Source: an uncultured Rickettsiales bacterium
GTDB lineage: Bacteria > Pseudomonadota > Alphaproteobacteria > Rickettsiales > SXRF01
Direction of reading: 5' to 3'
NCBI GenBank assembly: GCA_964624555.1
Contig: CAZUXB010000004.1
Span: 5,825 to 69,824 of the forward strand
DNA: 64,000 bases
Shown here: positions 51 through 13,317 of the stretch, piece by piece
Layout of the letters: the number at the start of each line of letters is the position of its first letter
Position numbering within the stretch: the first letter of the stretch is position 1
Program-made: the position numbers and the translations under genes
The notes under the pieces: generated by a model
What the model was told of the DNA's origin: nothing
Database searches by the model: none
What the model saw: the letters and a program-made list of their open reading frames with translations, nothing else

Positions 51-3000
51 ATGAGTCTTGACGACTATATCAGAGACATACAGGAATTGCGTAGAGGAAA
101 TGTTCCTGAACATATTGCCAATGAATACAAAATACTTTCTCCCGATAATCCTATTACGCAAGCTTTTGCACCGCACATGCAAAAATTGTGGGAACGGCTG
201 ATCGGAGCAACCAACCAAGGCGGATATGATCCGCAAAAACATCAAGTCCGGTTTCTGCTTTCCGCTTCTGATGATGTGAATGCGTTTGTATTCACGGACT
301 CTGTGCCTCCAACGATTGTCTTAACTAAAGGTCTTATATCGAAACTTCAGACTGAAGGTGAAATAGCCGGGGTGCTGATGCATGAAAAACTGCATAGCAT
401 TCTTAAAGACCGGCTCGGCTTACATCCCAATAGCTATATGGAAGAAAGCGGCGCGGATATGTATGGTGCCTATGCGCTTTATAAAGCGGGCTTCCCACCC
501 GGCGAAATGGCCACCGCCCTTAATAAGTTGCCGCATGATGGCGTAGTTAATATGGTCGATAAGATGCTGCAGGTGGGTACTGATCCTCATCCACCGATAG
601 AAGAACGGGTGCGTGTGGTTGAAGACACCGTTGCGATATTGCAGAGACTACAAGGATTATCCACTGCAACATCGCAAGATATTGACCCAGCGTTCAAAGC
701 CCAGATAGCGAGTGCGACTTTTGAATCTGCATTCGGCAAAAGACTAGCAGCCATCACTGAGGAGGGAGTCGCACCTGCTGAACAGTTGCGCCGAGCAGCA
801 AATTTTATACCTGACCTGCAACGATTGCCGGACAATGAGTGGGCTGAAAGTCAGATTCAAAGATTTTTTACTGACTTAACAAAAATTGATATTAGCCCGT
901 CTCGGGAGGAAGATAAGCTGGCTTATAAAGAGTTCATGCAGCGTCTGTACGCAAAACCAGAAGCTGTTAGTCGCCGCTGGCAAAGAAGCTTAGTTTTAGG
1001 ACATTCAAATGGTGCTGTTGAGCATCTTGATCAAAAACTTGGCCTAGACAGGATACGTGATTTTAACACCCGAGCCGAATATGCCGGACTGCCAGCAAAT
1101 GAGATAAAGAAAGCTGCTCAGGGAATGATAGGAGCCGTAACGGAAGCAGAGTTCCTGACTCATGCAAGTAACCTTGCCCGCATGCTTGATGTTTATAATA
1201 CAGATAGCAATAGCTTAACATTAAAATTATCGGGTGTACTTTATAACTACCCTACGCAGGCTATTGACGCATCACAAGTTCAAGCAATAAATGATTCGAT
1301 AATACAGGCTGGTGATTCTCCGCAAGCTCTAAGCGAGGCAATTGCTAAACATGGAATAAAACTACCGTGGCATGACCATATTACGTGGGCGCAGCAAGCG
1401 ATGGCTGGCGGTCATCCTGAAGCAATGAAAGCGCTGCACTATCTGGGAATAGGTAATGTTGATCCAAGAGTAGCAGAATTTCCTGGGGTTTCTCCAATTG
1501 ATGGTGGCATCCATCAAAAGAGTAGGATGTTAATTAATCCTGCGAACGGTATGATTCAGGGAACGATTGACCGCAGGCAAGAGACTAGCTATTCGCGCCC
1601 GCTTAATCTGGAAAAAGAGAAAGAAAGACTCGCTGCGTTTGATCTTCAGCAAAAAGCAGCAGTAGCCACTGCTGATTGGGGGCTGCTGGAACGTGATTTC
1701 CATGAATTCACAAGGCAATATAAACGCTTCTTATCGCCACTTGGTACAGATTGGCCGGAATCAGCACCTTTTGCTCAGCGTTTCATTCAGGAATCGGAAA
1801 AATTACTGGCAAAAGACAGAGCTAAATATGCACCGCTGCTAAAAGAGTATTTAGGTATTACCGATGAAACCGCTGCCCATCTCAGGGACATTTATACGCG
1901 TGCCCAATCTAAAGATATTATAGAGTTAGCTAGAGCAGAGAGCGATTACAACAGGTTATCATATCATGCTCCTTATTCAGATAGAAGCATGGTGATGCGT
2001 CGTTCTGATGCTTTTTCAGATACTCATTTAGATATTATACAAGGCGGTAAATTTGAAATTCATCCAACACATCCATTTGTAGGGTTTGTGGTTCAGGATA
2101 AACATAATCTCTTCTCGGTTGCTGATAAAGTTGAGCTTCTAAGCGGTGTTGTAGGAGGATTTATCCATCCTATTGCAGCACCAGAGAGAGTTTATGGCTT
2201 TGCTACTCCCAATACCATGCAGGAATTACGCGCAGCGATGGATGTAGTTCGCACCAGCCCTCTTGATGCATCTTCAGACAGAGCAAATTATACGGGCATG
2301 GCCAATGACTATTTAAGATTTAACTATTTAGTAAACCATCCTGATGAAGCCTATTCGCGCCGTGATTTAGAACTTTTCACCTCTGTTCACAGATTAGACG
2401 GAAGCAACTTTAACGCTGGGGGATTGCCCGAACAGGATGTTATTAAAGCTATTTTAGCGAAACACAATGAACGCCTTGTTGCGCATGAGATTAGCCCACA
2501 GTCAACTTTGGAAGAAACGATACAAGGTTTCCGCCAATTCGCTGATGAAGGGAATTCGTACTTCAAACAGCATCCAGAAATACGCGTTCAGTATGAGCAA
2601 AAAATATTAGCCGGATTAGCACAATTAAGAGATGCCGATCCGCAGGAAGCCAGCCGCCTTACCAAAATGTTATTATATACCGAACATAAGGGGCATATTG
2701 GCCAGCTTGGTGCTCTACGTGGCAATGGCAAAACCATGACCCCTGAATTTTTGAATAGTAAATTCAAACAAGAGGTAATGTCCCATTATGTAGCCGCTCA
2801 AGCTGCTTTGCTTGGAACAGATGATTTAAGCCAGCAATATTCCACAAGGGCAAAGGCTGCCATTGACGAAGTAGTAGCGCGTGTTTCCGGCAATTCCCGC
2901 TATGAAATACTACGCGATCTAACCGACGCAGTAGTGTCCGGCAAAGAGGTTAGCTACTACGCACGCGATAGCTTAATGCGTATAACCAACGACCAGATAA

Positions 3001-6000
3001 GCCATGCTGATAATTCCCTACGCGGAAGTTATATGGCCAATCAATTCCTAGAGAAGAAATCTCCCGAAAGACAGGCAAGTTTTATAAAATTCTTGCGCGG
3101 AGGGTATGACGAACAAAGTGCAGTAGAATTTTTAAGAGTAATCGAAGATAGAGAAAAATACGAAGCGCTTAAGCTAAGAGAACAGGAGTTGCAGGAACAA
3201 GCAAAGGCCCAAAAAGCAAAGATTGCTATTATAGACCAAGCAATGGACGATAATCGTAAGCTCGCCGCACAAAATCAAGGTGAAGGATTTATTCCTACCG
3301 TTGCTTCCGAAGAGCGCAGTACACAACTATATAAAGAATATATTAAGTTAGAAGAGCAAAGGCGTGAACACGCATATGCAATCCACTCCATAGAAAGCGA
3401 ATTAGAAAATAAAGTAAAAACTGAGCTGCAAAACAGAGATTTTGCAACCACTAAACTTTGGAAACAAATAATAACCGGCGATGTTTACACTGATTCGGCT
3501 CCTGTTACTGAGGCGCAGAAAATCCTCTATCTGCAAATGCAGCATGATAATTTCTGGGCAATGTCCACAGAAGGGCGGACAATGGTATTGTCACGCCAGC
3601 TATTTCCTACTGACATGCCGGATGCAGAAGCTGAAGCCCATTTCCAGCAGCAAAAAAGTCGAATCTTAGCGGAGCAGCTTCCTGATAGCATGAAAAGTGG
3701 TTCTGATGCACGGGTGATTGCAGAAAAATATATGGAGCATATACCTCGTGCAGAAGCACGTTTGTTCCTGAGTGCGCTTATTGCCTCCCGTGACCCACGT
3801 GTTGCCCATGAGGCCTCGTTAGGTGATGCTATCGGCCTACTTGCCAAGGCAATGGGTTCTGCGGAAAACAAGCTGGCGCAGGTTGGGCATAGCCTTGAAG
3901 CAACACCTGATGATATTCGTGCAGGTCTTGCACATTCAAAAAGCGATTATAAAAAACCATCAAGATGGGCTTCGTTTGAGTGGATTGAAACGCATGGCCC
4001 ACCAGCAGCTGGGCAAGCCCATGTTGGAGCGTTACTGGGAGCAGGCTCATATAACGTAACGTGGCCATTGGAATACCCGGATGGACGGCAGACCGCACTT
4101 AATATGCTTCGTCCTTATGTTGAAGAAAGCTCAACTTACGGTTTTGATATTCTCGAAAAAACTGCACGGGCACTTGTAGCAGATGACAGGAAATACCAAC
4201 CACTCCTCGACCTAGTGCAGGAAACCAGACGGCAGTTTCCAAATGAAGTGAATACCCGCCTCGCTGCTGGACAGGCTATCGTTGCTGACCAGAACTACCA
4301 TGGCACAGTGGTTAAAGCAGGGGGATATGAATTTCATATCACCACGGCTGACTGGATCGCGCATGGTGACAGCTATAAAGAAACGCTTATTGCTCCCGGC
4401 AAACATTTTAGTGACTTGCCAGAATCAACATCGGCGGAGTTGGCATTTAAGAAGGCTGCTGCCAAAGCACTCTTTACGGTAGAACTTTCGCAATGGTCAC
4501 GAGGACATGCGACTGACCCTGACCGTCACGGTAAGCAGCAAAAGATTATCGCTGATCCGAATAATCCAACCGTAGCATTGGTTACTATGTTCGACCATGG
4601 GATGCAGAAACTAGATGCACCTTCACTTAAAACCCAAATGGTAGCAGGCAGGGCGATAGAAAGCGCGGTGGCACTATCTAAAAAGAGCGGCATTGGCTTC
4701 GGAGAAGCTTTGGCTAGTGTCATTGATGCAAAGGTCAGCGGTTATGCTGATAGTGTTCCGCCCGAGGAAATTCAGCATTTATCTTCACTTAAACGCGGGC
4801 TACTGCAAATGGGCGATTATGTTCAGTATATGGACAAAGCCGATATTGCTGAATCCATATCAGCCATACGTAAAGCCGGGGCAGTTTCAACCGGCTTAAA
4901 GCTTGGTATTATGCAAGAGCGTGTAAGCAGTGAAGGTGTTGCCGGATTACTGCCAAGGTTTGGCGGCAGTGAAGCAAAACCTGACCCTGCCAATAGAATT
5001 GTATTAGCGCATGATTTTGCTACTGTAGAACAAACTAAGCTTAGATTGAATCCATCCTATGCCGCACTGGTAAATCCTGCTCCGCCTAAACCCGTGTTAA
5101 CCATAGTTCCTGATACAGGCCAGCAAGTAGCACCGCCTCAAGAAAGTAATAGACCTGCCCCCGGTCCACGTGGCAACAGGCCCGGCTCATCATCAGTAAT
5201 TGGTATCGCACCACAACCTTTACCATTGAATACCACGCCAGTTGTCGGTGGATTGGCTTTGGTAGCAGAACTGCAAACTCCGCTTCAGCTTGCTCCGGCT
5301 ACTGAAACAATTGTATCTCCGGCACACATGCCTGCTGCTGCTAATGAGCCTAGCATCAATCCAACACCAAAAGCCGATGTTAAGCCAACTCCGCACACAC
5401 CAGTGACCACTGCACCAAAAGTTCACGCAGCTACACGTACCACTGGTTCCGCCGGTGCAGCACTTGGAATTAAAGGATTAGTGGATAGTTTTAGTGAAGG
5501 CGGAAGTTATCAAAAAGCGTCACAAGTTGGTGGTGAACAGCTTTACTCAGAAAGAGCGGCAATTGCCGGGGACGTTGCAGGCATTGCTACCGGCGCGGGT
5601 GATATTATAGGCAAAGCAAGTAAGGCTGTTCAATTTTTAGGACGTGCTGCTCCTATTGTTGCTGCTGGAGGCACAATTCTTAGAGTAAATGCTGCTGATA
5701 AAGCGCAAGATGGGCGCACAGGAATAGGAGCCATTACTGGCTTTGTAGGTGCTATGGGTTCAGGTGCCGCTACTGGTTTTGTCGCTGGTACTCAAACAGC
5801 AAATCCATGGGTTACAGCAGGGAGTGCGTTTGGTGGCGCATTGGTAGGTGGTTATCTGGCAACTGATGCCGGAAAGGAATCACAGCTTGGCGATCAAAGA
5901 CAACGCGATCTCGACCATGCGGCACAGGTAATTATAGATAAGAATATAGCTACCTTCCAGACACTGGAAAAAATGCGCTTATATGGTGGTATGTGGATTA

Positions 6001-6788
6001 AGCCAGAACGTATAACCGTCCGCCAAATTACTAAAGCAATGCATGAGCAGTATATGCGCCTGTCTGTTCTGGATATTCCGCCAACAGATATTGATGGTCA
6101 TATGCGTCTGGAATTCCAAAAACGCCAAACTTTGCAGTTTATTGATTACATGAACGGCAAAGAAGGTACGCCGATGCCACAAAGCAGTATTGAGGTAGCA
6201 AGTAACTTATCGCGCAAGCTTGATGCACTCCTGCCGCAGTTAAATGATCCGAAACTCGGCTGGCAGAAATATCTGGATGCTGACGGTGATGGCAAAGTAT
6301 CTCGTGCGGATGTATTGGCAACTCTCTCAAAATACGGCGCAGAGATACATACTCTCAGTATGGATGGGATTAACCTGACCATTGGCGAACTGACTGGTGC
6401 GCTAAAAGCATTGGGTGTTGATCAAGGAACAACTCGTACCGAGCGTGTAGGTCGCGCTATTCAAACCACTTCCTTAGTCCCACTTATTAACGATGAAGTT
6501 CATGAGAACTTTGGTGGTCGTGCAGGTTATGGTAAATTTATAGAGGCCATAAAAGCGCAGCTTCCAGCACTAGAAAAACTTGGTATTTCTAAGTATATCG
6601 GCAACGGCGATAGCAAGATTACCCTTGATGAAATCATGGACACCTGCAAGAAAAATGGTATTCGCATAAGCGAGATAGACCGCGACGGTGACGGAAAAAT
6701 AACCGCCGGGGAAATTGTTCAGGCACTACAAACACGGGGTATAGGAATGCCGCAAGCCAATGGAAAGAATGACTCTGGTCGTACGTAG
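51..6788 (+). CDS. Giant 2245-aa mosaic, effector-like protein: N-terminal M48-type Zn-protease motif, central ABC1/UbiB-like kinase-fold region, Pro-rich linker, Gly/Ala-rich hydrophobic segment, C-terminal EF-hand-like loops
   Basis: Uninterrupted 6.7-kb ORF. Protease motif: VLMHEKLHS (HExxH), then EESGADMYGAYALYKAGFPP (M48/BepA-like third ligand). ABC1/UbiB signatures in order: LGAGSYNVTW, TALNMLRP, NEVNTRLAAGQA, HATDPDRHGKQQ, MFDHGM. Pro-rich PPKPVLTIVPDTGQQVAPPQESNRPAPGPRGNRPG. Ca-binding loops DADGDGKVSRAD and DRDGDGKITAGE. Confidence 0.8.
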   Translation: MSLDDYIRDIQELRRGNVPEHIANEYKILSPDNPITQAFAPHMQKLWERLIGATNQGGYDPQKHQVRFLLSASDDVNAFVFTDSVPPTIVLTKGLISKLQTEGEIAGVLMHEKLHSILKDRLGLHPNSYMEESGADMYGAYALYKAGFPPGEMATALNKLPHDGVVNMVDKMLQVGTDPHPPIEERVRVVEDTVAILQRLQGLSTATSQDIDPAFKAQIASATFESAFGKRLAAITEEGVAPAEQLRRAANFIPDLQRLPDNEWAESQIQRFFTDLTKIDISPSREEDKLAYKEFMQRLYAKPEAVSRRWQRSLVLGHSNGAVEHLDQKLGLDRIRDFNTRAEYAGLPANEIKKAAQGMIGAVTEAEFLTHASNLARMLDVYNTDSNSLTLKLSGVLYNYPTQAIDASQVQAINDSIIQAGDSPQALSEAIAKHGIKLPWHDHITWAQQAMAGGHPEAMKALHYLGIGNVDPRVAEFPGVSPIDGGIHQKSRMLINPANGMIQGTIDRRQETSYSRPLNLEKEKERLAAFDLQQKAAVATADWGLLERDFHEFTRQYKRFLSPLGTDWPESAPFAQRFIQESEKLLAKDRAKYAPLLKEYLGITDETAAHLRDIYTRAQSKDIIELARAESDYNRLSYHAPYSDRSMVMRRSDAFSDTHLDIIQGGKFEIHPTHPFVGFVVQDKHNLFSVADKVELLSGVVGGFIHPIAAPERVYGFATPNTMQELRAAMDVVRTSPLDASSDRANYTGMANDYLRFNYLVNHPDEAYSRRDLELFTSVHRLDGSNFNAGGLPEQDVIKAILAKHNERLVAHEISPQSTLEETIQGFRQFADEGNSYFKQHPEIRVQYEQKILAGLAQLRDADPQEASRLTKMLLYTEHKGHIGQLGALRGNGKTMTPEFLNSKFKQEVMSHYVAAQAALLGTDDLSQQYSTRAKAAIDEVVARVSGNSRYEILRDLTDAVVSGKEVSYYARDSLMRITNDQISHADNSLRGSYMANQFLEKKSPERQASFIKFLRGGYDEQSAVEFLRVIEDREKYEALKLREQELQEQAKAQKAKIAIIDQAMDDNRKLAAQNQGEGFIPTVASEERSTQLYKEYIKLEEQRREHAYAIHSIESELENKVKTELQNRDFATTKLWKQIITGDVYTDSAPVTEAQKILYLQMQHDNFWAMSTEGRTMVLSRQLFPTDMPDAEAEAHFQQQKSRILAEQLPDSMKSGSDARVIAEKYMEHIPRAEARLFLSALIASRDPRVAHEASLGDAIGLLAKAMGSAENKLAQVGHSLEATPDDIRAGLAHSKSDYKKPSRWASFEWIETHGPPAAGQAHVGALLGAGSYNVTWPLEYPDGRQTALNMLRPYVEESSTYGFDILEKTARALVADDRKYQPLLDLVQETRRQFPNEVNTRLAAGQAIVADQNYHGTVVKAGGYEFHITTADWIAHGDSYKETLIAPGKHFSDLPESTSAELAFKKAAAKALFTVELSQWSRGHATDPDRHGKQQKIIADPNNPTVALVTMFDHGMQKLDAPSLKTQMVAGRAIESAVALSKKSGIGFGEALASVIDAKVSGYADSVPPEEIQHLSSLKRGLLQMGDYVQYMDKADIAESISAIRKAGAVSTGLKLGIMQERVSSEGVAGLLPRFGGSEAKPDPANRIVLAHDFATVEQTKLRLNPSYAALVNPAPPKPVLTIVPDTGQQVAPPQESNRPAPGPRGNRPGSSSVIGIAPQPLPLNTTPVVGGLALVAELQTPLQLAPATETIVSPAHMPAAANEPSINPTPKADVKPTPHTPVTTAPKVHAATRTTGSAGAALGIKGLVDSFSEGGSYQKASQVGGEQLYSERAAIAGDVAGIATGAGDIIGKASKAVQFLGRAAPIVAAGGTILRVNAADKAQDGRTGIGAITGFVGAMGSGAATGFVAGTQTANPWVTAGSAFGGALVGGYLATDAGKESQLGDQRQRDLDHAAQVIIDKNIATFQTLEKMRLYGGMWIKPERITVRQITKAMHEQYMRLSVLDIPPTDIDGHMRLEFQKRQTLQFIDYMNGKEGTPMPQSSIEVASNLSRKLDALLPQLNDPKLGWQKYLDADGDGKVSRADVLATLSKYGAEIHTLSMDGINLTIGELTGALKALGVDQGTTRTERVGRAIQTTSLVPLINDEVHENFGGRAGYGKFIEAIKAQLPALEKLGISKYIGNGDSKITLDEIMDTCKKNGIRISEIDRDGDGKITAGEIVQALQTRGIGMPQANGKNDSGRT

Positions 6789-6799
6789 TTTTCCTGCTG

Positions 6800-7282
6800 T
6801 TATTTGCTTTCATTTATCCAAAATACAATCACCAGTGCCAAACCAATTATTGCACTTACCAGTAACGAATGCCAAAGTTCTGAGAATGATGATGCAAACC
6901 AATTAATAATAGATGTTAGGATCGTTGCACTTGCTGCAAACCACCACCCTATAAATTCTGCTATAAGATTTTTGCGTAGCTCTGTTTTAGTATAAGGGGT
7001 GTTTTGCCACTTATTAATTCGTTTCTGAAGTTTCTTATCCAAAACATTTGCGTAGTCAGCGATTAGTGGCAGATTGCAGCGCATCCATGATAGAGCTTCC
7101 ATATCCATTGGACTTGGCAAATATTTTGTATCACTTTCTATAAGCTGCAATTGCCGCTCAATAGCTTCAAGCTGCATCGCCAATTTTCGTATATTATGCT
7201 TTTTACCTAGCAGCACATGATACCCCGACATAGTGAACGATACCACCAAGACAGTTAGTCTCAGTGGTGCCGGGTTGTTCAA
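6800..7282 (-). CDS. Hypothetical membrane protein (160 aa)
   Basis: ORF convergent with the giant gene, 11 nt between stops. Hydrophobic stretches LRLTVLVVSFTMSGYHVLL, WWFAASATILTSIINWF and VSAIIGLALVIVFWI. No family recognised. Confidence 0.5.
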   Translation of the reverse strand: MNNPAPLRLTVLVVSFTMSGYHVLLGKKHNIRKLAMQLEAIERQLQLIESDTKYLPSPMDMEALSWMRCNLPLIADYANVLDKKLQKRINKWQNTPYTKTELRKNLIAEFIGWWFAASATILTSIINWFASSFSELWHSLLVSAIIGLALVIVFWINESK

Positions 7283-7762
7283 AAAGCTGTAGTGAAACAG
7301 CCACGGCGTTTTTAGCCGAAGCCTGTTATATGTGCGCCGTCAACCCGACCTACTGGTCGAGAGACAGCATCAATCACGGTCTGATGCAGAACCGTTCACT
7401 AAGGGCTTTTTGAAGACCCAACACCTTATGAGTGTCATGGAAACCATATCATGAATAATCAGCGCGTCAAACAATCCCTGAAAAATCAATTTTGCATAAT
7501 CAATTTATTATTGCTCCTCTCTAGGACTGTTGCTACTGAAAACACCATAAATTTGCTCTTCGCACACGCACGTGTACACAGCTGTGCTAACTAATATTCA
7601 GTTATGTTATATAATTCAATCGGTTGATATTTTAGCAGAGGTGCGTTGACGTGCTAATTGCTAATATCATGATATTTAATGATAAAACGCTCATATTAAT
7701 CAATAATGCAAAAATATATGCTAATTAATCAATGTTATTTTTTATTGATTACACAAAATTGA

Positions 7763-8494
7763 TTAATCATAGCTGAGTAAATGCTCTTCAGATAGCAATG
7801 CACGAAAAGTATTTAAGGCGACCTTATTTTCCGATGTTCGAAATTTTGAGAGATATTTATGTGCTGACATTTTGGTACCGGCGCTAGAAGTAGCATAACT
7901 TTCAAGAAAGCTCATAAATTCACTAATTGATTTTCTGTCGAGTCGATCCGCATCTTTATTGCTAATTAGTTTTTTTACTGCATTATCTTCAATAGATTCT
8001 GCTAATTTAGATGCTGCAAATATTGGATTTTTTTTCTCAGCAGAATGGGCAATGAGTATAGTTCTTACACACCAAGCAATTCTTTTGTTCATGATTGTAT
8101 GATTTTCGAAAGTTTTAGAGTAATGTACTAAAAACCATCCAAGATCAGAAGCATGTTCTATTTCTTGACTGTAAGAATCTCGAAAGCGGAACTGTTTCTT
8201 TAAGCATTCAAAGAATCCATTTTGATCGTGGAGCGGTTGAGCTTCATAAACAATATGACAAACAAATAAATCACCACTTTCCGCCTTTTGAATTAGTTGA
8301 TTTTGTGGATAGAAAGATAAAGAAAAGTTAACTTCTAAAATATGCTTAGGCTTTGTATCGGGCGTTACTAAAAGAATATCCGTATCGGAAGCTTCTTCGT
8401 GATCGCCTCTAGCCCTACTGCCAAAAAGTGCAGCAGCAACAATTGAGGAATTATCCTCATAAAACTGAGAAAATTCTTTTATTCTAGTTTCCAT
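7763..8494 (-). CDS. Pol-beta/MNT-type nucleotidyltransferase-domain protein with helical C-terminal tail carrying a candidate HEPN-like Rx5H motif
   Basis: 243-aa ORF whose start overlaps the upstream WYL gene by 11 nt. LFGSRARGDHEEASDTDILLV fits the minimal NTase signature (GS-x10-DxD). The C-terminal half contains RTILIAH. AT-rich: hand count 19/60 G+C in 7801-7860. Confidence 0.75.
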   Translation of the reverse strand: METRIKEFSQFYEDNSSIVAAALFGSRARGDHEEASDTDILLVTPDTKPKHILEVNFSLSFYPQNQLIQKAESGDLFVCHIVYEAQPLHDQNGFFECLKKQFRFRDSYSQEIEHASDLGWFLVHYSKTFENHTIMNKRIAWCVRTILIAHSAEKKNPIFAASKLAESIEDNAVKKLISNKDADRLDRKSISEFMSFLESYATSSAGTKMSAHKYLSKFRTSENKVALNTFRALLSEEHLLSYD

Positions 8495-9422
8495 TATTTT
8501 CCGTACAGAAATTTTTTAATGCTTCTGCCGCCCTTACGCGGGCTTCATCTCGTGCATTTTCAATTTCAAGTCTATTTAACAAAATTATCTGCTGTTTATC
8601 AGGCTTTATTTTTCCTGGCTCTACATCTAAATTATACTCATTCATTAGATAAAAAGTTAGGCTAATTCGCGTGGGAATAACTAACTTTCCATCTTTCATA
8701 TCATATTCTGTGCTTATTGCTTTTTGTTTATCCGCAGAAAGTTCTGGATTTGGAGTGATAACCAAATTGATCATTTCGTTCCAAGCAATATCACATATTG
8801 ATTTATCAATTGAAGGGTTGGCCTCAAATACCTGAGAAATTCGACCTAGATGAAAGTCATTAAAATTGTCATGTTCTTTACACCATGCACGGATATACCA
8901 ACGTCCTGCACTGTTAATGAGTGTATGTGGAACTATATGTCGCACAACATCAGCTTTGCCGCTCATGGAATTGTAGTTGATTCTAAGCTCAAGCTTATTT
9001 CGGATAGCATCTAGAATTGCTAGCAGTAAAGATGATGAAGTAGATTTCCCCTTTAAAGTAACAATTTCAGCGGGTGGAAGGGTATCAAACCACGTATCTT
9101 CTTTTTTTATAAAACCACTTTTAATTCCCATAAGTTGCAGAAGATAGCGGTCAGTATTATGTCCAATCAAGCATGGCTTGAATGCCGAGCGACGTATAAA
9201 TGCTTTTCGGGCATTATCATATTCTAAGTTAGCAGGTGCCAATTCTTGATATTGGCTAATATCAGCAGATGCCTGCTGCGCAGATATATTGAAAACGTCA
9301 ATCAAATCTTTTCGGTTGAAGTACCCGTCCCACAATAAACGGAAATCAATGAATTCTAATCGGCGTTGTACTCCCCAGCGCACGGAATCCGGCAAAGAAA
9401 CAGGCACATCTTCATTATTCAT
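8484..9422 (-). CDS. wHTH + WYL-domain transcriptional regulator (CapW/BrxR-like architecture)
   Basis: 312 aa. N-terminal HTH-like RLEFIDFRLLWDGYFNRKDLIDVFNISAQQASADISQYQ. WYL-type core GRWYIRAWCKEHDNFNDFHLGRISQV, followed by a ~100-aa C-terminal extension. Divergent from the Thoeris operon. Confidence 0.75.
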   Translation of the reverse strand: MNNEDVPVSLPDSVRWGVQRRLEFIDFRLLWDGYFNRKDLIDVFNISAQQASADISQYQELAPANLEYDNARKAFIRRSAFKPCLIGHNTDRYLLQLMGIKSGFIKKEDTWFDTLPPAEIVTLKGKSTSSSLLLAILDAIRNKLELRINYNSMSGKADVVRHIVPHTLINSAGRWYIRAWCKEHDNFNDFHLGRISQVFEANPSIDKSICDIAWNEMINLVITPNPELSADKQKAISTEYDMKDGKLVIPTRISLTFYLMNEYNLDVEPGKIKPDKQQIILLNRLEIENARDEARVRAAEALKNFCTENNGN

Positions 9423-9454
9423 AAAAAACCCATCAAATAACTTGACGCACTCGG

Positions 9455-9489
9455 CTGGATAATGTATCCAGTTACTAGATGCATCTAGT
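9455..9489. promoter_or_regulatory. Two adjacent palindromes in the divergent control region; candidate operators for the WYL regulator
   Basis: CTGGAT-aatgt-ATCCAG at 9455-9471 and the perfect 16-mer ACTAGATG|CATCTAGT at 9474-9489. They lie 33-67 nt upstream of the WYL start and 51-85 nt upstream of the first plus-strand ORF. Confidence 0.45.
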
Positions 9490-9539
9490 TTGTTGTCTGA
9501 TTATACACTGTTAACCCAATGAATTAAAGGAAAAAGATT

Positions 9540-9725
9540 ATGGTGAAAAAACCAGGAGAATCAACAGGAAATTGCGGGGGGATCTTTCAGGAGGTGGGGC
9601 CGCGTGGTGGGGTAAAGCCTAATTATGCGACAGTGGCCGACAATCATCGTCTGCCACCGACTCAAACAAGTGGCGGCGGCTGGAAACCTATTAAAGTTAC
9701 TCCTGATAGCTTTCGTAAATCCTAA
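9540..9725 (+). CDS. YjzC-like small protein (61 aa), first cistron of the Thoeris-containing operon
   Basis: AAGGA-type SD about 9 nt upstream. KKPGESTGNCGGIFQEVGPRGG...HRLPPTQTSGGGW follows the YjzC-family pattern as I remember it (PGE..G.Y.E.GPRGG....LPPT...G..W). Confidence 0.5.
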   Translation: MVKKPGESTGNCGGIFQEVGPRGGVKPNYATVADNHRLPPTQTSGGGWKPIKVTPDSFRKS

Positions 9726-9779
9726 CAACAACAGGCCGCAGAATTTTCTGATGGCTTACTAATTTGAGAAAGAAAGTAT

Positions 9780-10271
9780 ATGGCAAGAAAAGTATTTTTT
9801 AGCTTTCATTATGATCGCGATGTAAGGCGGGTTGTGCAGGTGCGCAATTCATGGGTTGTGCGTGGTGAGAAAGAGGCTCAACCATTCTTGGACAAAGCAG
9901 AATGGGAGTCGATTAAGCGTACGGGAGATAGAGCCGTGGAAAAATGGATCGAAGAGCAACTTAACGGCACATCTGTTACCGTAGTGCTTATCGGCGCAGA
10001 GACTTATGATCGTGAGTGGGTGAAGCACGAAATTAAGCGGAGTTACGAACTGAAAAAAGGTATAATCGGTATTTATATCCATAACATTAAAGACCCACAA
10101 AAGGGAACAGATACAAAGGGTAGGAACCCCCTAGACCATTGGCACATCACCAGTAATGGCCAAAAGCAAATGTTTACTAGTCTTTATAAAACTTATGATT
10201 GGGTTGCTGATAATGGCTATCAAAACTTCTCGGCGTGGGTTGAGACTGCTGCTAAAGCTGCAGGAAGGTAG
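9780..10271 (+). CDS. thsB: Thoeris ThsB, TIR-like (DUF1863-type) protein
   Basis: MARKVFFSFHYDRDVRRVVQVRNSWVV, VVLIGAETYDREWVKHEIKRS (WVxxE catalytic-Glu context) and YKTYDWVADNGYQNFSAWV closely follow the Bacillus cereus ThsB pattern as I remember it. Confidence 0.85.
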   Translation: MARKVFFSFHYDRDVRRVVQVRNSWVVRGEKEAQPFLDKAEWESIKRTGDRAVEKWIEEQLNGTSVTVVLIGAETYDREWVKHEIKRSYELKKGIIGIYIHNIKDPQKGTDTKGRNPLDHWHITSNGQKQMFTSLYKTYDWVADNGYQNFSAWVETAAKAAGR

Positions 10272-10276
10272 TAAAT

Positions 10277-10783
10277 ATGCCGATATCACTTCACACTCTG
10301 CGTTCAACTGGAAGCGTTCTCCAAAAGGCTCATAATATCTCAGAGGCGCGTACACTTGGAGCGCAAACTGCTTTCCTGTGTCATAGCCACAAGGATAAAG
10401 ACTTAGTGCAAGGCGCGGTCGCCCAACTCCATAAAGCTGGATGGAACGTATACGTAGATTGGGCAGACGCGGCGATGCCGGAAACGCCCAATCGGGAAAC
10501 AGCAGCTAAAATTAAGGATAAGATCGTTGAACTGACATTCTTTCTATTCTTAGCTACCCCTAATTCGATGAATTCAAAATGGTGTCCGTGGGAATTAGGT
10601 TATGCCGATGGGAAAAAGGACATTGAAAAAATTCTCGTAATTCCTACCAGTGATAATGGCTCCACTTATGGCAGCGAATATCTTCAATTATACCGGCGCG
10701 TTGATGTTGGTGGTTCCGGCTTATTAGAAGTATTTTCACCAGGATATCAGCATCACAGCACTTCATTCAGAAATTTATATTAG
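10277..10783 (+). CDS. thsB: Second, different TIR-domain protein (ThsB-like)
   Basis: Starts 5 nt after thsB. AFLCHSHKDKDLV...GWNVYVDW...FLFLATPNSMNSKWCPWELGYADG fits the canonical bacterial TIR layout (SHxxxD start, conserved Glu in WELG). Confidence 0.8.
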   Translation: MPISLHTLRSTGSVLQKAHNISEARTLGAQTAFLCHSHKDKDLVQGAVAQLHKAGWNVYVDWADAAMPETPNRETAAKIKDKIVELTFFLFLATPNSMNSKWCPWELGYADGKKDIEKILVIPTSDNGSTYGSEYLQLYRRVDVGGSGLLEVFSPGYQHHSTSFRNLY

Positions 10784-10791
10784 AGGTTGGA

Positions 10792-12225
10792 ATGAACAGG
10801 GAAATAGAAGCTTTTATCAATGATTTTGTGAACGATCTGGCTGCAAACAATGCAGCGATTTTCGCAGGCGCCGGCATGTCAAAGAATACAGGGTATGTAG
10901 ATTGGTCAGGTTTACTTGATGATATCGCAACACGTCTGGGTTTGCAGATCGATAAAGAGAATGATCTCGTATCTCTAGCTCAGTATCACGTAAATGAAAG
11001 TGGGCGCGCTTTATTAAATAAAAAAATTATAGAAGAATTTGTTGAAGATAATGATATTACTGAAAATCATCGTATCTTAGCTAGGTTGCCTATTTCGACT
11101 TATTGGACGACGAATTATGACCGTTTAATCGAAAATGCCCTAAAAGAAGCGAACAAAAGAGCGGATGTAAAATTTGCTGTTGAGCAAATTTTTAATACAC
11201 ATCCTAGACGTGATGCAGTTGTATATAAAATGCATGGCGATGCGACTTTACCTGCGCAGGCTATTTTGACCAAAGAAGATTACGAACGATATCATGTAAC
11301 TCATGAAGCATTTATCAATGCTCTTACTGGCGACCTCACTACTAAAACTTTTCTTTTTATTGGATTTAGTTTTGCTGACCCAAATCTCGATTATGTCTTA
11401 AGTCGCATAAACGTAAGACATCGTGAGTATAAACGCGATCACTACTGCTTTATTAGGCGTCCAAAGTTAGGAGAAAAGGAAAGCGAAAGCAGAGCAGATT
11501 TCGATTATAATAGTAGGAAACTGCAACTAAGATTAGGAGAGCTAAAGCGTTACGGAATTCAGCCTCTTCTAATCGATGAGTACCATGAAATCAGAGAAGT
11601 TCTCGAAGAAATAGAAAATCGCTTTAGAAAACGCACTGTGTTTATTTCTGGCAGTGCAGAAGAATATGGCGATTGGAATCGTAATGAAGCTCAACAATTC
11701 GTTCACAAACTAAGCAAAGCACTAATTATTCAAGGCTATCGCATAGTAAATGGATTTGGCTGGGGAATTGGCAGTGCCGTAATCAACGGTGCGCTTGATG
11801 CAGTATATGAAAGGCCCGATAAATACAGCGAAGATCAGCTTATTATGAAACCATTTCCCCAGTTCCAAACGGGGGATAAAGCACTTCCTGATTTGTGGGA
11901 AGAATATCGTCAAAGAATGATCGGGCTGGCTGGTATTTCAATCATTATATTTGGAAATAAGTTAGACAAGGGAACGATTGTAAATGCAAACGGCGTTAGG
12001 CGTGAGTTCGAAATTGCTAGGCAACATGATTTGGTGCCGATACCGATACCAATAACTGGATATATGGCTAAAGAAATCTTTGATGAGATTTCACAAGACT
12101 TCGATTCCTTATACACCGAGAACAAAAAAATAATACCTTTGGTAAAGGGACTTTCTTCGCTTGCTCACAACGATGTAGATAAAATCGTTCATAAAATAAT
12201 AGAGATACTAAAAAAGGTGAACTAG
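10792..12225 (+). CDS. thsA: Thoeris ThsA: N-terminal SIR2 NADase + C-terminal SLOG signal-binding domain
   Basis: 477 aa. IFAGAGMS (NAD-binding GAG), WTTNYDRLIE (catalytic Asn) and VYKMHGDATLP (catalytic His). C-terminal VFISGSAEEYG...GFGWGIGSAVINGAL...IIIFGNK...REFEIA is SLOG-like. GAGG SD 8 nt upstream. Confidence 0.9.
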   Translation: MNREIEAFINDFVNDLAANNAAIFAGAGMSKNTGYVDWSGLLDDIATRLGLQIDKENDLVSLAQYHVNESGRALLNKKIIEEFVEDNDITENHRILARLPISTYWTTNYDRLIENALKEANKRADVKFAVEQIFNTHPRRDAVVYKMHGDATLPAQAILTKEDYERYHVTHEAFINALTGDLTTKTFLFIGFSFADPNLDYVLSRINVRHREYKRDHYCFIRRPKLGEKESESRADFDYNSRKLQLRLGELKRYGIQPLLIDEYHEIREVLEEIENRFRKRTVFISGSAEEYGDWNRNEAQQFVHKLSKALIIQGYRIVNGFGWGIGSAVINGALDAVYERPDKYSEDQLIMKPFPQFQTGDKALPDLWEEYRQRMIGLAGISIIIFGNKLDKGTIVNANGVRREFEIARQHDLVPIPIPITGYMAKEIFDEISQDFDSLYTENKKIIPLVKGLSSLAHNDVDKIVHKIIEILKKVN

Positions 12226-12237
12226 GAGCAGGTCGCT

Positions 12238-13050
12238 ATGAAATTTGCGCTGGTAAACGGATATAAAACTGAACCTCAGCCAAAGCTGCATGGTATCTGC
12301 GCACATTGCCATAGTGAAACAGTTTCGAAATGCGGAGATGCAAAGGTTTGGCATTGGGCGCATAAAAACAAGCTCTCATGTGATATATGGTGGGAGAACG
12401 AAACGGAGTGGCATAGGGTGTGGAAAAATCATTTCCCTACAGAATGGCAGGAAATTAGCCATTCTGATCCTTTAACCGGCGAAAAACATATAGCGGATAT
12501 TAAAACAGAAAATGGACTGGTAATAGAGTTCCAGCATTCTGCAATCCAACCCACCGAGATGAAAAGCCGTGAGGCTTTCTATAAAAATATGATATGGGTT
12601 GTTGATGGGACACGTCTAAAGAGAGACTACCCACGCTTCCACAAAGGGCTTAGGAATCTGGGGCTGGTAAAACAAGGGGTTTTCCTTTCGCCTTTCCCTG
12701 AAGAAAGTTTTCCAGCAAGCTGGCTTACAAGCTCGGTACCAGTTTATTTTGATTTTCAAGGCATGAATCCTATTGATGAATCAGATTGGAGCCAACCGCT
12801 TCTTTGGGGGATATTTCCAAATCGTGTAGAAGGGCGTGTTATAGTTGCTGCGTTCTTACGCAAGGAGTTTATCGAATCTCCTCACTTACTTTTGGGGCAT
12901 GAGGTCTTTAATATGATTTCAGAGTATATTCAGGAGCAGCGTGAAAAAACAACAGTTAACGTCCAAAAACAATCTCTGCAATTACCTCGCCAACAGCATA
13001 TGGTAATACCCATGCGAATGAGAAGGCCAAGAAGATATAGGCGTTTCTAA
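12238..13050 (+). CDS. CoiA-like (competence protein CoiA family) putative nuclease, last cistron of the operon
   Basis: Starts 12 nt after thsA with an AGGAG SD. Zn-ribbon-like CAHCHS...KCGD...WHWAHK, then GEKHIADIKTENGLVIEFQHSAI matching the CoiA core (D-x-...-E-F/Y-Q-x-S). Basic tail RMRRPRRYRRF. Confidence 0.7.
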   Translation: MKFALVNGYKTEPQPKLHGICAHCHSETVSKCGDAKVWHWAHKNKLSCDIWWENETEWHRVWKNHFPTEWQEISHSDPLTGEKHIADIKTENGLVIEFQHSAIQPTEMKSREAFYKNMIWVVDGTRLKRDYPRFHKGLRNLGLVKQGVFLSPFPEESFPASWLTSSVPVYFDFQGMNPIDESDWSQPLLWGIFPNRVEGRVIVAAFLRKEFIESPHLLLGHEVFNMISEYIQEQREKTTVNVQKQSLQLPRQQHMVIPMRMRRPRRYRRF

Positions 13051-13240
13051 GGAGCCAAAAATTTTTAAAAATTCCTAGGCAGGCTTAAAAAGTTCCGGGG
13101 GGTATTTAGGGCAGGGGTATTTTTAAGTTTTCTTAATGAAGTGATGGAGAGGATAGGCCGATAATAGGCATGATGGTATCCCCACGGTATCCCCGAAGAT
13201 TAGGTGTGGAAAACGACTATCCATAACTCGTTGAAATAAA

Positions 13241-13317
<77 letters not shown>

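Follow-up and report, generated by a model that had tools for sequence, protein, structure and literature searches.

A CapW-type repressor gene overlapping that of a HalB-family nucleotidyltransferase: a probable regulatory module beside exchangeable defence operons

Introduction

The question raised by the locus studied here is why the gene for a putative ligand-sensing transcriptional repressor should overlap the gene for a nucleotidyltransferase (NTase) next to an anti-phage operon. The locus lies in a 64,000-nucleotide stretch of DNA from an uncultured Rickettsiales bacterium (the whole stretch is hereafter referred to as the window), in which two minus-strand genes, capW (8484..9422) and a halB-like gene (7763..8494), run divergently from a Thoeris operon. 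A preliminary description, made from the sequence alone, offered two readings of the pair: a new toxin-antitoxin (TA) or abortive-infection module in which a WYL-domain regulator controls the NTase, or a regulator of the CapW/BrxR type that also controls the divergent Thoeris operon and has picked up the NTase as a passenger. The second reading comes closer to what we find, except that the NTase is no passenger but a conserved partner that co-diversifies with the repressor in 22 other loci.

We conclude, with a probability of roughly 0.85, that positions 7763–9539 hold a CapW-HalB regulatory module with an operator-bearing promoter, and not a TA pair or a canonical Hailong system. The identity of the two proteins, the partners of HalB in other genomes, the shared promoter and the changing neighbouring operons are taken in turn below, followed by the mechanism that they suggest and the alternatives to it.

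Results

Predicted identities of the two proteins

The downstream gene (7763..8494, minus strand, ATG start) encodes a 243-aa protein that NCBIfam profiles, PDB matches, an AlphaFold2 (AF2) model searched with Foldseek and a family alignment (A1) all assign to the HalB family, i.e., the enzyme of the Hailong system. It scores 228.6 bits against the NCBIfam HalB equivalog NF051895 (cutoff 190), and a phmmer comparison with the solved HalB of PDB 9dbh gives an E of 2.5e-38 over residues 15–234. The AF2 model, with a predicted local distance difference test score (pLDDT) of 88.6, matches 9dbh, titled “Hailong HalB in complex with oligodeoxyadenylate,” with a Foldseek TM of 0.79–0.91. The family is small, comprising ~90 clusters at 50% identity (E<=1e-30) in a collection of 1.84 billion representatives.

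According to two sources (PMC13434031, PMC13276650), Hailong consists of two genes, with HalB constitutively making tyrosine-primed oligodeoxyadenylate (oligo-dA) that keeps the membrane channel HalA closed, until a phage exonuclease degrades the oligo-dA and HalA opens. That HalA binds oligo-dA is stated in the title of PDB 9nyi and in PMC13434031; the details of the HalB mechanism used here come from reviews and PDB titles.

The residues expected of such an enzyme are in place in the window protein. The minimal pol-beta motif GS-x10-DxD, which the preliminary description had already read, is indeed there as G25-S26, ten residues, and D37-T38-D39 (SDTD), and D37 and D39 are the equivalents of D21 and D23 in solved HalB (numbered as in the PDB entry titles) and nearly invariant in alignment A1. 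A WCVRT motif occupies residues 141–145, and the penultimate residue, Tyr242, sits in a flexible, low-pLDDT tail of the model, as expected for a protein-priming residue. Every HalB linked to CapW has the GS...DxD and WCVRT motifs and a Tyr among its last 4 residues, and such a Tyr is also present in most of those linked to HalA. By analogy with Hailong, the window HalB is probably a template-independent, Tyr242-primed deoxynucleotidyltransferase making short single-stranded DNA (ssDNA).

The upstream gene (8484..9422, minus strand, ATG start) encodes a 312-aa protein that had been described as combining winged helix-turn-helix (wHTH) and WYL domains, and both Pfam (PF13280, E 8.6e-16) and full-length structure matches agree. 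It aligns with the Rhizobium leguminosarum CapW of PDB 9c5g over residues 15–297 (E 7e-52) and over ~280 residues with 7tb5, 7tb6, 7t8k and 7qfz, which include the CapW proteins of P. aeruginosa and S. maltophilia as well as two BrxR structures, while its orthologues have the architecture WHD_BrxR + WYL + BrxR_CTD. Judged by this homology it is a full-length CapW/BrxR repressor of the form wHTH-linker-WYL-WCX.

The WYL pocket of CapW takes ssDNA, upon which the operator is released, and in R. leguminosarum CapW the ssDNA is contacted by S144, R164, R168 and R184 (PMC11662680). All four have equivalents in the window CapW (S152, R174, R178 and R194, within the motif RWYIR), and they are retained in almost all HalB-linked CapWs, the ligand pocket being intact in this group. 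Between the two contact arginines, 21 of 24 HalB-linked CapWs have a Tyr (RWYxR; residues 174–178 in the window), as opposed to His in all 5 solved CapW/BrxR proteins (RWHxR; RWHVR in R. leguminosarum CapW). This residue should face the ligand side since it alternates with a bottom-facing Trp. The change from His to Tyr is a possible, though only suggestive, determinant of specificity for the ssDNA ligand or its bases. The crystallised R. leguminosarum CapW (9C5G) was considered as a HalB-linked protein itself and ruled out: the HalB-linked Rhizobium CapW is a distant relative only (E 9e-54), and its length of 308 aa against 299 aa for the 9C5G chain means that the two are different proteins.

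The two genes overlap by 11 nt, as the preliminary description had it: the capW stop and the halB start share 8484..8494 (minus strand), read directly from the sequence, an arrangement consistent with translational coupling. In the two closest relatives, loci L002 and L001, the overlap is 11 nt and 11 to 23 nt, respectively, the latter depending on the start codon. Across 16 loci the distance from the capW stop to the halB start ranges from −23 to +55 nt, and the keeping of this spacing across loci indicates that the pairing is not due to chance.

CapW or HalA as the partner of HalB

HalB loci were collected from three sources: reference genomes, contigs of metagenomes and genomes that carry homologues, and viral contigs. 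Scanning the reference genomes with the single HalB sequence returned no relatives, and search patterns derived from the alignment succeeded. In the 34 loci other than the window, the upstream neighbour of halB is CapW in 22 and HalA in 12, and in no case both. The neighbourhood survey that had been proposed for WYL and NTase genes thus finds CapW directly upstream of HalB again and again, and because one or the other protein is directly upstream of halB and never both, CapW can be said to occupy the slot of HalA.

The identity of the second partner was established from HalB loci without CapW, where a protein of 335–460 aa with C-terminal transmembrane segments abuts or overlaps the halB start. 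One of these proteins matches PDB 9nyi, “HalA in complex with oligodeoxyadenylate,” with an E of 3e-44, and a HalA profile hidden Markov model built from the HalB-adjacent proteins, validated on the same entry (E 3e-44), matches 10 of 10 non-CapW HalB genome loci and 0 of 17 CapW loci. In the window itself, a six-frame translation of the full 64 kb gives no match to this profile at E<=10.

Pairwise distances among the CapWs correlate with those among the HalBs (r = 0.85, 22 loci), a value reached by 0 of 5000 Mantel permutations, so the CapW-HalB pair co-diversifies.

On a conjugative R. leguminosarum plasmid the CapW-HalB pair is annotated merely as a “WYL domain-containing protein” and a “nucleotidyltransferase domain-containing protein,” and two full-length HalB matches on viral contigs are canonical HalA-HalB pairs; a collection of phage genomes yielded no HalB relative. 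A different arrangement is seen on 5.4-kb ColE1-type plasmids of Klebsiella pneumoniae (L094, e.g., NZ_CP110173.1), where a WYL gene of the BrxR/CapW family is divergent from an operon whose three genes are a 56-aa ORF (open reading frame), one for a DUF1883 protein and one for a divergent HalB-like NTase. The NTase scores 139 bits against the HalB model and its only PDB match is HalB. The cassette is present on ten Klebsiella plasmid records, mostly from clinical isolates, and related HalB-like matches occur on two Yersinia ruckeri plasmids. By sequence, the Klebsiella plasmids provide a second, independent gene order joining the CapW/BrxR and HalB-like families, and the cassette is a candidate defence or regulatory cassette.

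The CapW-linked enzymes are at present labelled as part of Hailong. NF051895 gives them 221–229 bits (L003, L087 and others), above its cutoff, with 305 bits for the HalA-linked HalB of L009, and RefSeq names them “anti-phage Hailong system nucleotidyltransferase HalB” though no HalA is present. This label is an annotation over-call, and genome annotation and counts of defence systems will over-call Hailong and overlook the CapW-HalB module.

Shared promoter and candidate operators

Between capW and the gene that opens the opposite operon lies a shared divergent promoter region (9423..9539), which has 88% mean column identity with L001 and L002 (alignment A3) and contains a minus-strand TATAAT at 9500–9505. 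A dyad search by a custom script located two inverted repeats with short arms, which an automatic inverted-repeat finder had missed. The first, P1 (9474..9489), is a perfect 16-bp palindrome, ACTAGATGCATCTAGT; the second, P2 (9455..9471), is found 32 nt upstream of the capW ATG and reads CTGGATA-cat-TATCCAG. In the two relatives the positions of both dyads are conserved. P1 is identical in L002 and near-identical in L001 at an equal distance from the capW ATG, and P2 in L001 reads CTTGAT...ATCAAG, where both arms differ in a compensatory manner. Scans for promoter and terminator consensus sequences did no better on this DNA than on shuffled sequence and are excluded as evidence.

Published CapW and BrxR proteins bind ~20-bp palindromes in shared promoters (PMC9122588). 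The window has the same layout, with a CapW gene divergent from a defence operon and palindromic candidate operators in the promoter between them, and P1 and P2 (9455–9489) are most likely the sites bound by CapW.

Exchange of the neighbouring operon

The operon facing capW in the window is, as the preliminary description had recognised, Thoeris. The type I Thoeris genes (9780..12225, plus strand) encode two TIR-domain ThsB proteins (9780–10271 and 10277–10783) and a ThsA with SIR2 and STALD/SLOG domains (10792–12225). PADLOC gives E values of 1.7e-200 for ThsA and 5e-71 and 1.7e-63 for the ThsB proteins, and Pfam finds ThsB_TIR, TIR_2, SIR2_2 and STALD. The operon starts with a 61-aa gene (9540..9725, plus strand), which has orthologues in L001 and L002, and ends with a CoiA-like nuclease gene (12238..13050, plus strand; Pfam CoiA_N and CoiA_nuc). 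It is the presumed target of repression by CapW.

Elsewhere the neighbour is different. Thoeris is divergent from capW-halB in the window and in L018. CBASS (cyclic-oligonucleotide-based anti-phage signalling system) stands next to the pair as type I in L002, as type II in L003, L007, L011, L022 and L089, and as type III with HORMA, TRIP13 and NucC in L017 and L020; Pycsar-type cyclases do so in L010 and L087, and the candidate system PDC-M48 in L001. In four Rhizobiales loci (L004, L006, L084 and L088) the place is taken by a metallo-beta-lactamase (MBL)-like protein, an E1-E2-JAB protein and a membrane protein. The sizes in this last set are ~395 aa, ~760 aa for the E1-E2-JAB fusion and ~255 aa, and the membrane protein is related to the neighbour of PDC-M48B in L001. 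The capW-halB pair is thus a portable module whose cargo changes while the pair stays, and the expectation of an operonic WYL-regulator/NTase pair in a defence context holds for the window.

The closest relatives show where the exchange takes place. The window CapW is 80–89% identical to those of L001 and L002, and HalB ~69%, and DNA homology with both covers a ~1.96-kb block whose limits are exactly the halB stop codon (7764) and the end of the 61-aa gene (9725). Homology with L002 then resumes at the CoiA-like gene, which is 60% identical to L002:3375-4097 and closes the CBASS operon there, and at tRNA-Pro(tgg) (13241..13317, minus strand), where 80 nt are homologous. Between these flanks the window has Thoeris and L002 has a CBASS of CD-NTase and patatin. 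The common flanks (61-aa gene, CoiA-like gene and tRNA-Pro) and the exchanged cargo suggest a cassette-exchange hotspot. The whole locus lies inside a low-GC stretch (0.39–0.41, compared to 0.44–0.52 in much of the surroundings) that extends over ~6800–13240 and ends at the tRNA-Pro, the right edge and a probable island boundary and integration site; no integrase was seen within the island of the window.

With 92% identity to its L001 orthologue and 85% to that of L002, the 61-aa gene (MVKKPGESTGNCGGIFQEVGPRGG...) is better conserved than either CapW or HalB. Profiles give no match to it, it has just 12 clusters in 5.8 billion proteins, and it contains a motif that presumably resembles YjzC-like small proteins. 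It also occurs beside RNR genes (L091) and a RES-Xre TA pair (L092). We considered the gene as an obligate third component and rejected this, as it is present elsewhere without CapW-HalB and missing from most CapW-HalB loci.

Three further features lie to the left of the pair. The ORF at 6800–7282 (minus strand, 143–160 aa) has a hydrophobic C-terminal region. The idea that it encodes an alternative effector or a HalA that has diverged was rejected: PDB and profile searches give no homologue, its sole match among 5.8 billion proteins is itself, and the conserved block does not include it. This ORF may be spurious or lineage-specific. Between this ORFan and halB is a 480-nt ORF-free stretch (7283–7762) that folds better than its shuffles (z = −3.46) and is absent as a conserved sequence from L001 and L002. 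At its end, 7261–7349 (minus strand) has a sub-threshold Rfam match to sRNA-Xcc1 (39.8 bits, below the gathering score of 53; E 2e-4), an integron-cassette-associated sRNA; an attC-like site and a small RNA are both possible readings of the region. Finally, a 2245-aa ORF (51–6788, plus strand) abuts the island. It has a HExxH-like motif (LMHEKLH) near the N-terminus and a linker region rich in Pro and Ala, and its product has the appearance of a large secreted effector or toxin.

Discussion

A proposed role for the HalB product

Both partners of HalB, HalA and CapW, are gated by short ssDNA, which leads us to propose that HalB supplies or sets the ligand of CapW. In such a scheme dimeric CapW would bind the dyads and repress its own capW-halB transcript as well as the divergent operon (the 61-aa gene, both ThsB genes, ThsA and the CoiA-like gene). 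HalB, translationally coupled to CapW, would make short ssDNA, and this product, or its loss or processing in infection, would be CapW's ligand and, via the WYL pocket, set its DNA-binding state. Expression of Thoeris would thereby read out a self-made ssDNA signal. That the product of HalB acts through CapW at all seems to us close to an even chance, or a shade below it.

The signal could have either of two signs. As a guard, constitutively made oligo-DNA would keep CapW at rest and repressing; removal of the oligo-DNA by a nuclease or an ssDNA-binding protein of the phage would derepress the operon, and halB, being controlled by CapW, would then reset repression. As a latch, a first ssDNA cue would free CapW from its operator and induce HalB, whose ssDNA would keep CapW off the operator so that the operon stays on. 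The latch fits the published allostery of CapW, in which ssDNA releases the operator, and the guard does not; the guard fits the precedent of HalB, where synthesis is constitutive and sensing occurs by loss. Taken together these ideas describe a “DNA-gated transcriptional guard,” in which the ssDNA ligand of a WYL repressor comes from an enzyme dedicated to it and either phage interference with this DNA (by a nuclease or an ssDNA-binding protein) or its induced synthesis switches on the neighbouring operon, a formulation that we put forward tentatively and with the odds leaning somewhat against it.

Several points weigh against our interpretation. The chief obstacle to signalling by the HalB product is that E. 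coli CapW bound 7-mers of poly-T, poly-C and poly-G and not poly-dA (PMC11662680), such that CapW-linked HalBs making oligo-dA would require CapWs with a different base preference. Neither the guard nor the latch fits every precedent. Linkage alone is expected to yield co-diversification of adjacent genes, and the CapW-linked HalBs are not cleanly monophyletic in a simple neighbour-joining tree; as that tree does not split cleanly into CapW-linked and HalA-linked enzymes, we do not claim a single switch of partner. The locus sample is also biased toward relatives of the window protein because the search patterns were derived from alignment A1, and it is within a sample biased in this way that the counts suggest that a large share of the HalB family is CapW-linked.

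The components are known and their combination appears to be new. A literature search found no paper joining HalB with CapW, BrxR or WYL, although the primary Hailong study, which lay outside that search, may mention it, and the CapW and BrxR papers mention no NTase partner; the earlier remark that a pairing of WYL regulator and NTase seemed undescribed appears to hold. We know of no other defence regulator whose small nucleic-acid ligand comes from its own operon. In a native Vibrio system, SOS-type ssDNA is reportedly insufficient as the cue for a repressor of the CapW/BrxR type, and a repressor subfamily co-transcribed with a predicted ssDNA synthase offers a concrete candidate source of these repressors' ligand in vivo. 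If our proposal is true, the signal generator of Hailong has been re-used with a completely different receptor, the principle of a constitutive DNA “guard” extends from the gating of an ion channel to the gating of transcription, and capW-halB is a plug-and-play regulatory cassette attached to Thoeris, CBASS, Pycsar and uncharacterised systems. The pairing suggests that in some bacteria the signal controlling the immune genes is self-made.

Alternative explanations

It is also important to consider other explanations, which we take in order of probability. The foremost, which we regard as unlikely, is that HalB is an inducible poly-dA effector: CapW would co-regulate halB with the cargo, and overproduced ssDNA homopolymer would hit the phage, e.g., by binding its ssDNA-binding protein (SSB) or replication proteins or through consumption of dATP, as proposed for the reverse transcriptase DRT9. 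The position of halB on a transcript that CapW is predicted to autoregulate suits this explanation, as does the failure of E. coli CapW to bind poly-dA, and DRT9 provides a precedent in that it makes protein-primed poly-dA in infection and phage SSB is pulled down with it (PMC12483538). One would expect a free-standing effector, however, to occur alone or with other regulators, and instead the gene directly upstream of halB in the 34 other loci is always that of an ssDNA-gated protein, with CapW in the exact slot of HalA. HalB in Hailong is moreover described, in PMC13434031, as a constitutive and non-toxic regulator.

Covalent modification of the repressor is considerably less probable. HalB would here deoxynucleotidylylate CapW on a Tyr, Ser or Thr, much as MntA poly-AMPylates HepT, and the tether would set repressor activity. 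The N-domain of HalB is MNT-like, enzymes of the family prime on a protein tyrosine (PMC13434031), the Tyr in the WYL strand is specific to the HalB-linked class of CapWs, and translational coupling favours formation of a complex. Priming in trans by HalB is without precedent, however, and the C-terminal Tyr kept in all CapW-linked HalBs argues that the enzyme still primes on itself.

Very improbable is the first reading of the preliminary description, a WYL-gated TA or abortive-infection pair laid out like AbiEi/AbiEii or built as a fused MNT-HEPN protein, with the NTase(-HEPN) as toxin. It drew on the overlap of a wHTH regulator gene with an NTase gene and on the string RTILIAH in the helical tail, which in the window sequence alone fits the HEPN motif Rx4-6H. 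The string is real (residues 144–150), and R144 is invariant within the motif WCVRTILIA of 28 HalB homologues, but residue 150 is His in only 2 of these 28 (alignment A1), otherwise R, K or Q, and is Arg in solved HalB. The profile searches proposed at the time recovered the WYL and NTase domains and gave no match for either protein to HEPN, DUF1814/AbiEii or AbiEi in Pfam, PADLOC or NCBIfam at E<=0.1. The MntA model NF047752 reaches 29.3 bits against a cutoff of 60, in the N-domain only. The structure prediction proposed as a check returned a HalB fold: in Foldseek searches with the whole protein, the matches ranking next to HalB are two-domain antibiotic NTases, namely ANT(4')/KNTase, LinB and AadA (TM ~0.5), HEPN-MNT complexes are matched via their MNT chain only, and the modelled C-domain appears to resemble the helical domain of kanamycin nucleotidyltransferase (KNTase). 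The tail can be called HEPN in the loose sense alone in which the HalB C-domain has been termed “HEPN-like” (PMC13586616). The logic of an MNT-HEPN toxin also sits poorly with Hailong, where HalB is the protective, non-toxic component (PMC13434031).

The last two alternatives have the slightest chance of all. A decayed Hailong, with halA lost and the adjacency of capW incidental, would have gone in the safe direction (HalA without HalB is toxic, according to PMC13434031) and could have left the 480-nt gap downstream of halB, but 22 other loci have the same arrangement, their catalytic motifs intact and the pair co-diversifying, canonical halA lies upstream of halB where capW now sits so that nothing is “missing” downstream, the gap is not conserved, and a search of the window and 17 CapW loci gave no halA remnant at E<=10. 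Direct guarding of a cargo effector, in which oligo-DNA would inhibit ThsA or another cargo protein by analogy with HalA, is countered by CapW being the only constant partner and by effectors so unrelated (SIR2-SLOG, patatin, NucC, SAVED-2TM, TIR and MBL-fold) that a single ligand is unlikely to gate them all.

Comparison with known systems

The CapW-HalB module combines features of systems that have been described separately. With Hailong (Tan et al. 2025, as summarised in PMC13434031; PDB 9dbh, 9dbi, 9dbj and 9nyi) it shares an NTase that belongs to the HalB family by sequence, curated profile and predicted structure and retains the Asp pair, the WCVRT motif and the C-terminal Tyr, and a halB gene directly downstream of, and coupled to, the gene of an ssDNA-binding protein. 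It differs in that HalA, a pentapeptide-repeat/transmembrane ion channel, is absent from the 64 kb and a repressor is in its slot, and the output would be expression of a swappable neighbouring defence operon, not depolarisation of the membrane.

With the CapW/BrxR regulators (PMC9122588, PMC9122601, PMC11662680, PMC13622015) it has in common full-length homology, conserved ssDNA-contact residues, a position divergent to a defence operon with palindromes in the shared promoter, and association with many defence systems. The described genes stand alone, however, and their products are thought to sense ssDNA of DNA damage or restricted infection, whereas the window repressor appears to be co-transcribed with a predicted ssDNA-synthesising enzyme and has a pocket of the form RWYxR rather than RWHxR.

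MntA-HepT and AbiEi/AbiEii resemble the module in the fold of the minimal pol-beta NTase N-domain and in having overlapping genes for a regulator and an NTase. The window proteins differ from them in lacking a conserved HEPN RNase motif, DUF1814 and an AbiEi domain, with profile scores below cutoff, and in the predicted whole-protein fold of the NTase, which matches HalB and the KNTase-type two-domain NTases.

DRT9, which primes via C-terminal tyrosines (PMC12483538), and other defence polymerases (PMC12483538, PMC13275509) make protein-primed, non-genomic ssDNA, either homopolymeric or random, as an immune signal or effector, with tyrosine priming at the C-terminus as predicted for the window HalB. 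DRT9 is a reverse transcriptase, in contrast to the pol-beta NTase fold considered here, and no ncRNA template is evident in the window. None of these polymerases has been described with a link to a WYL repressor.

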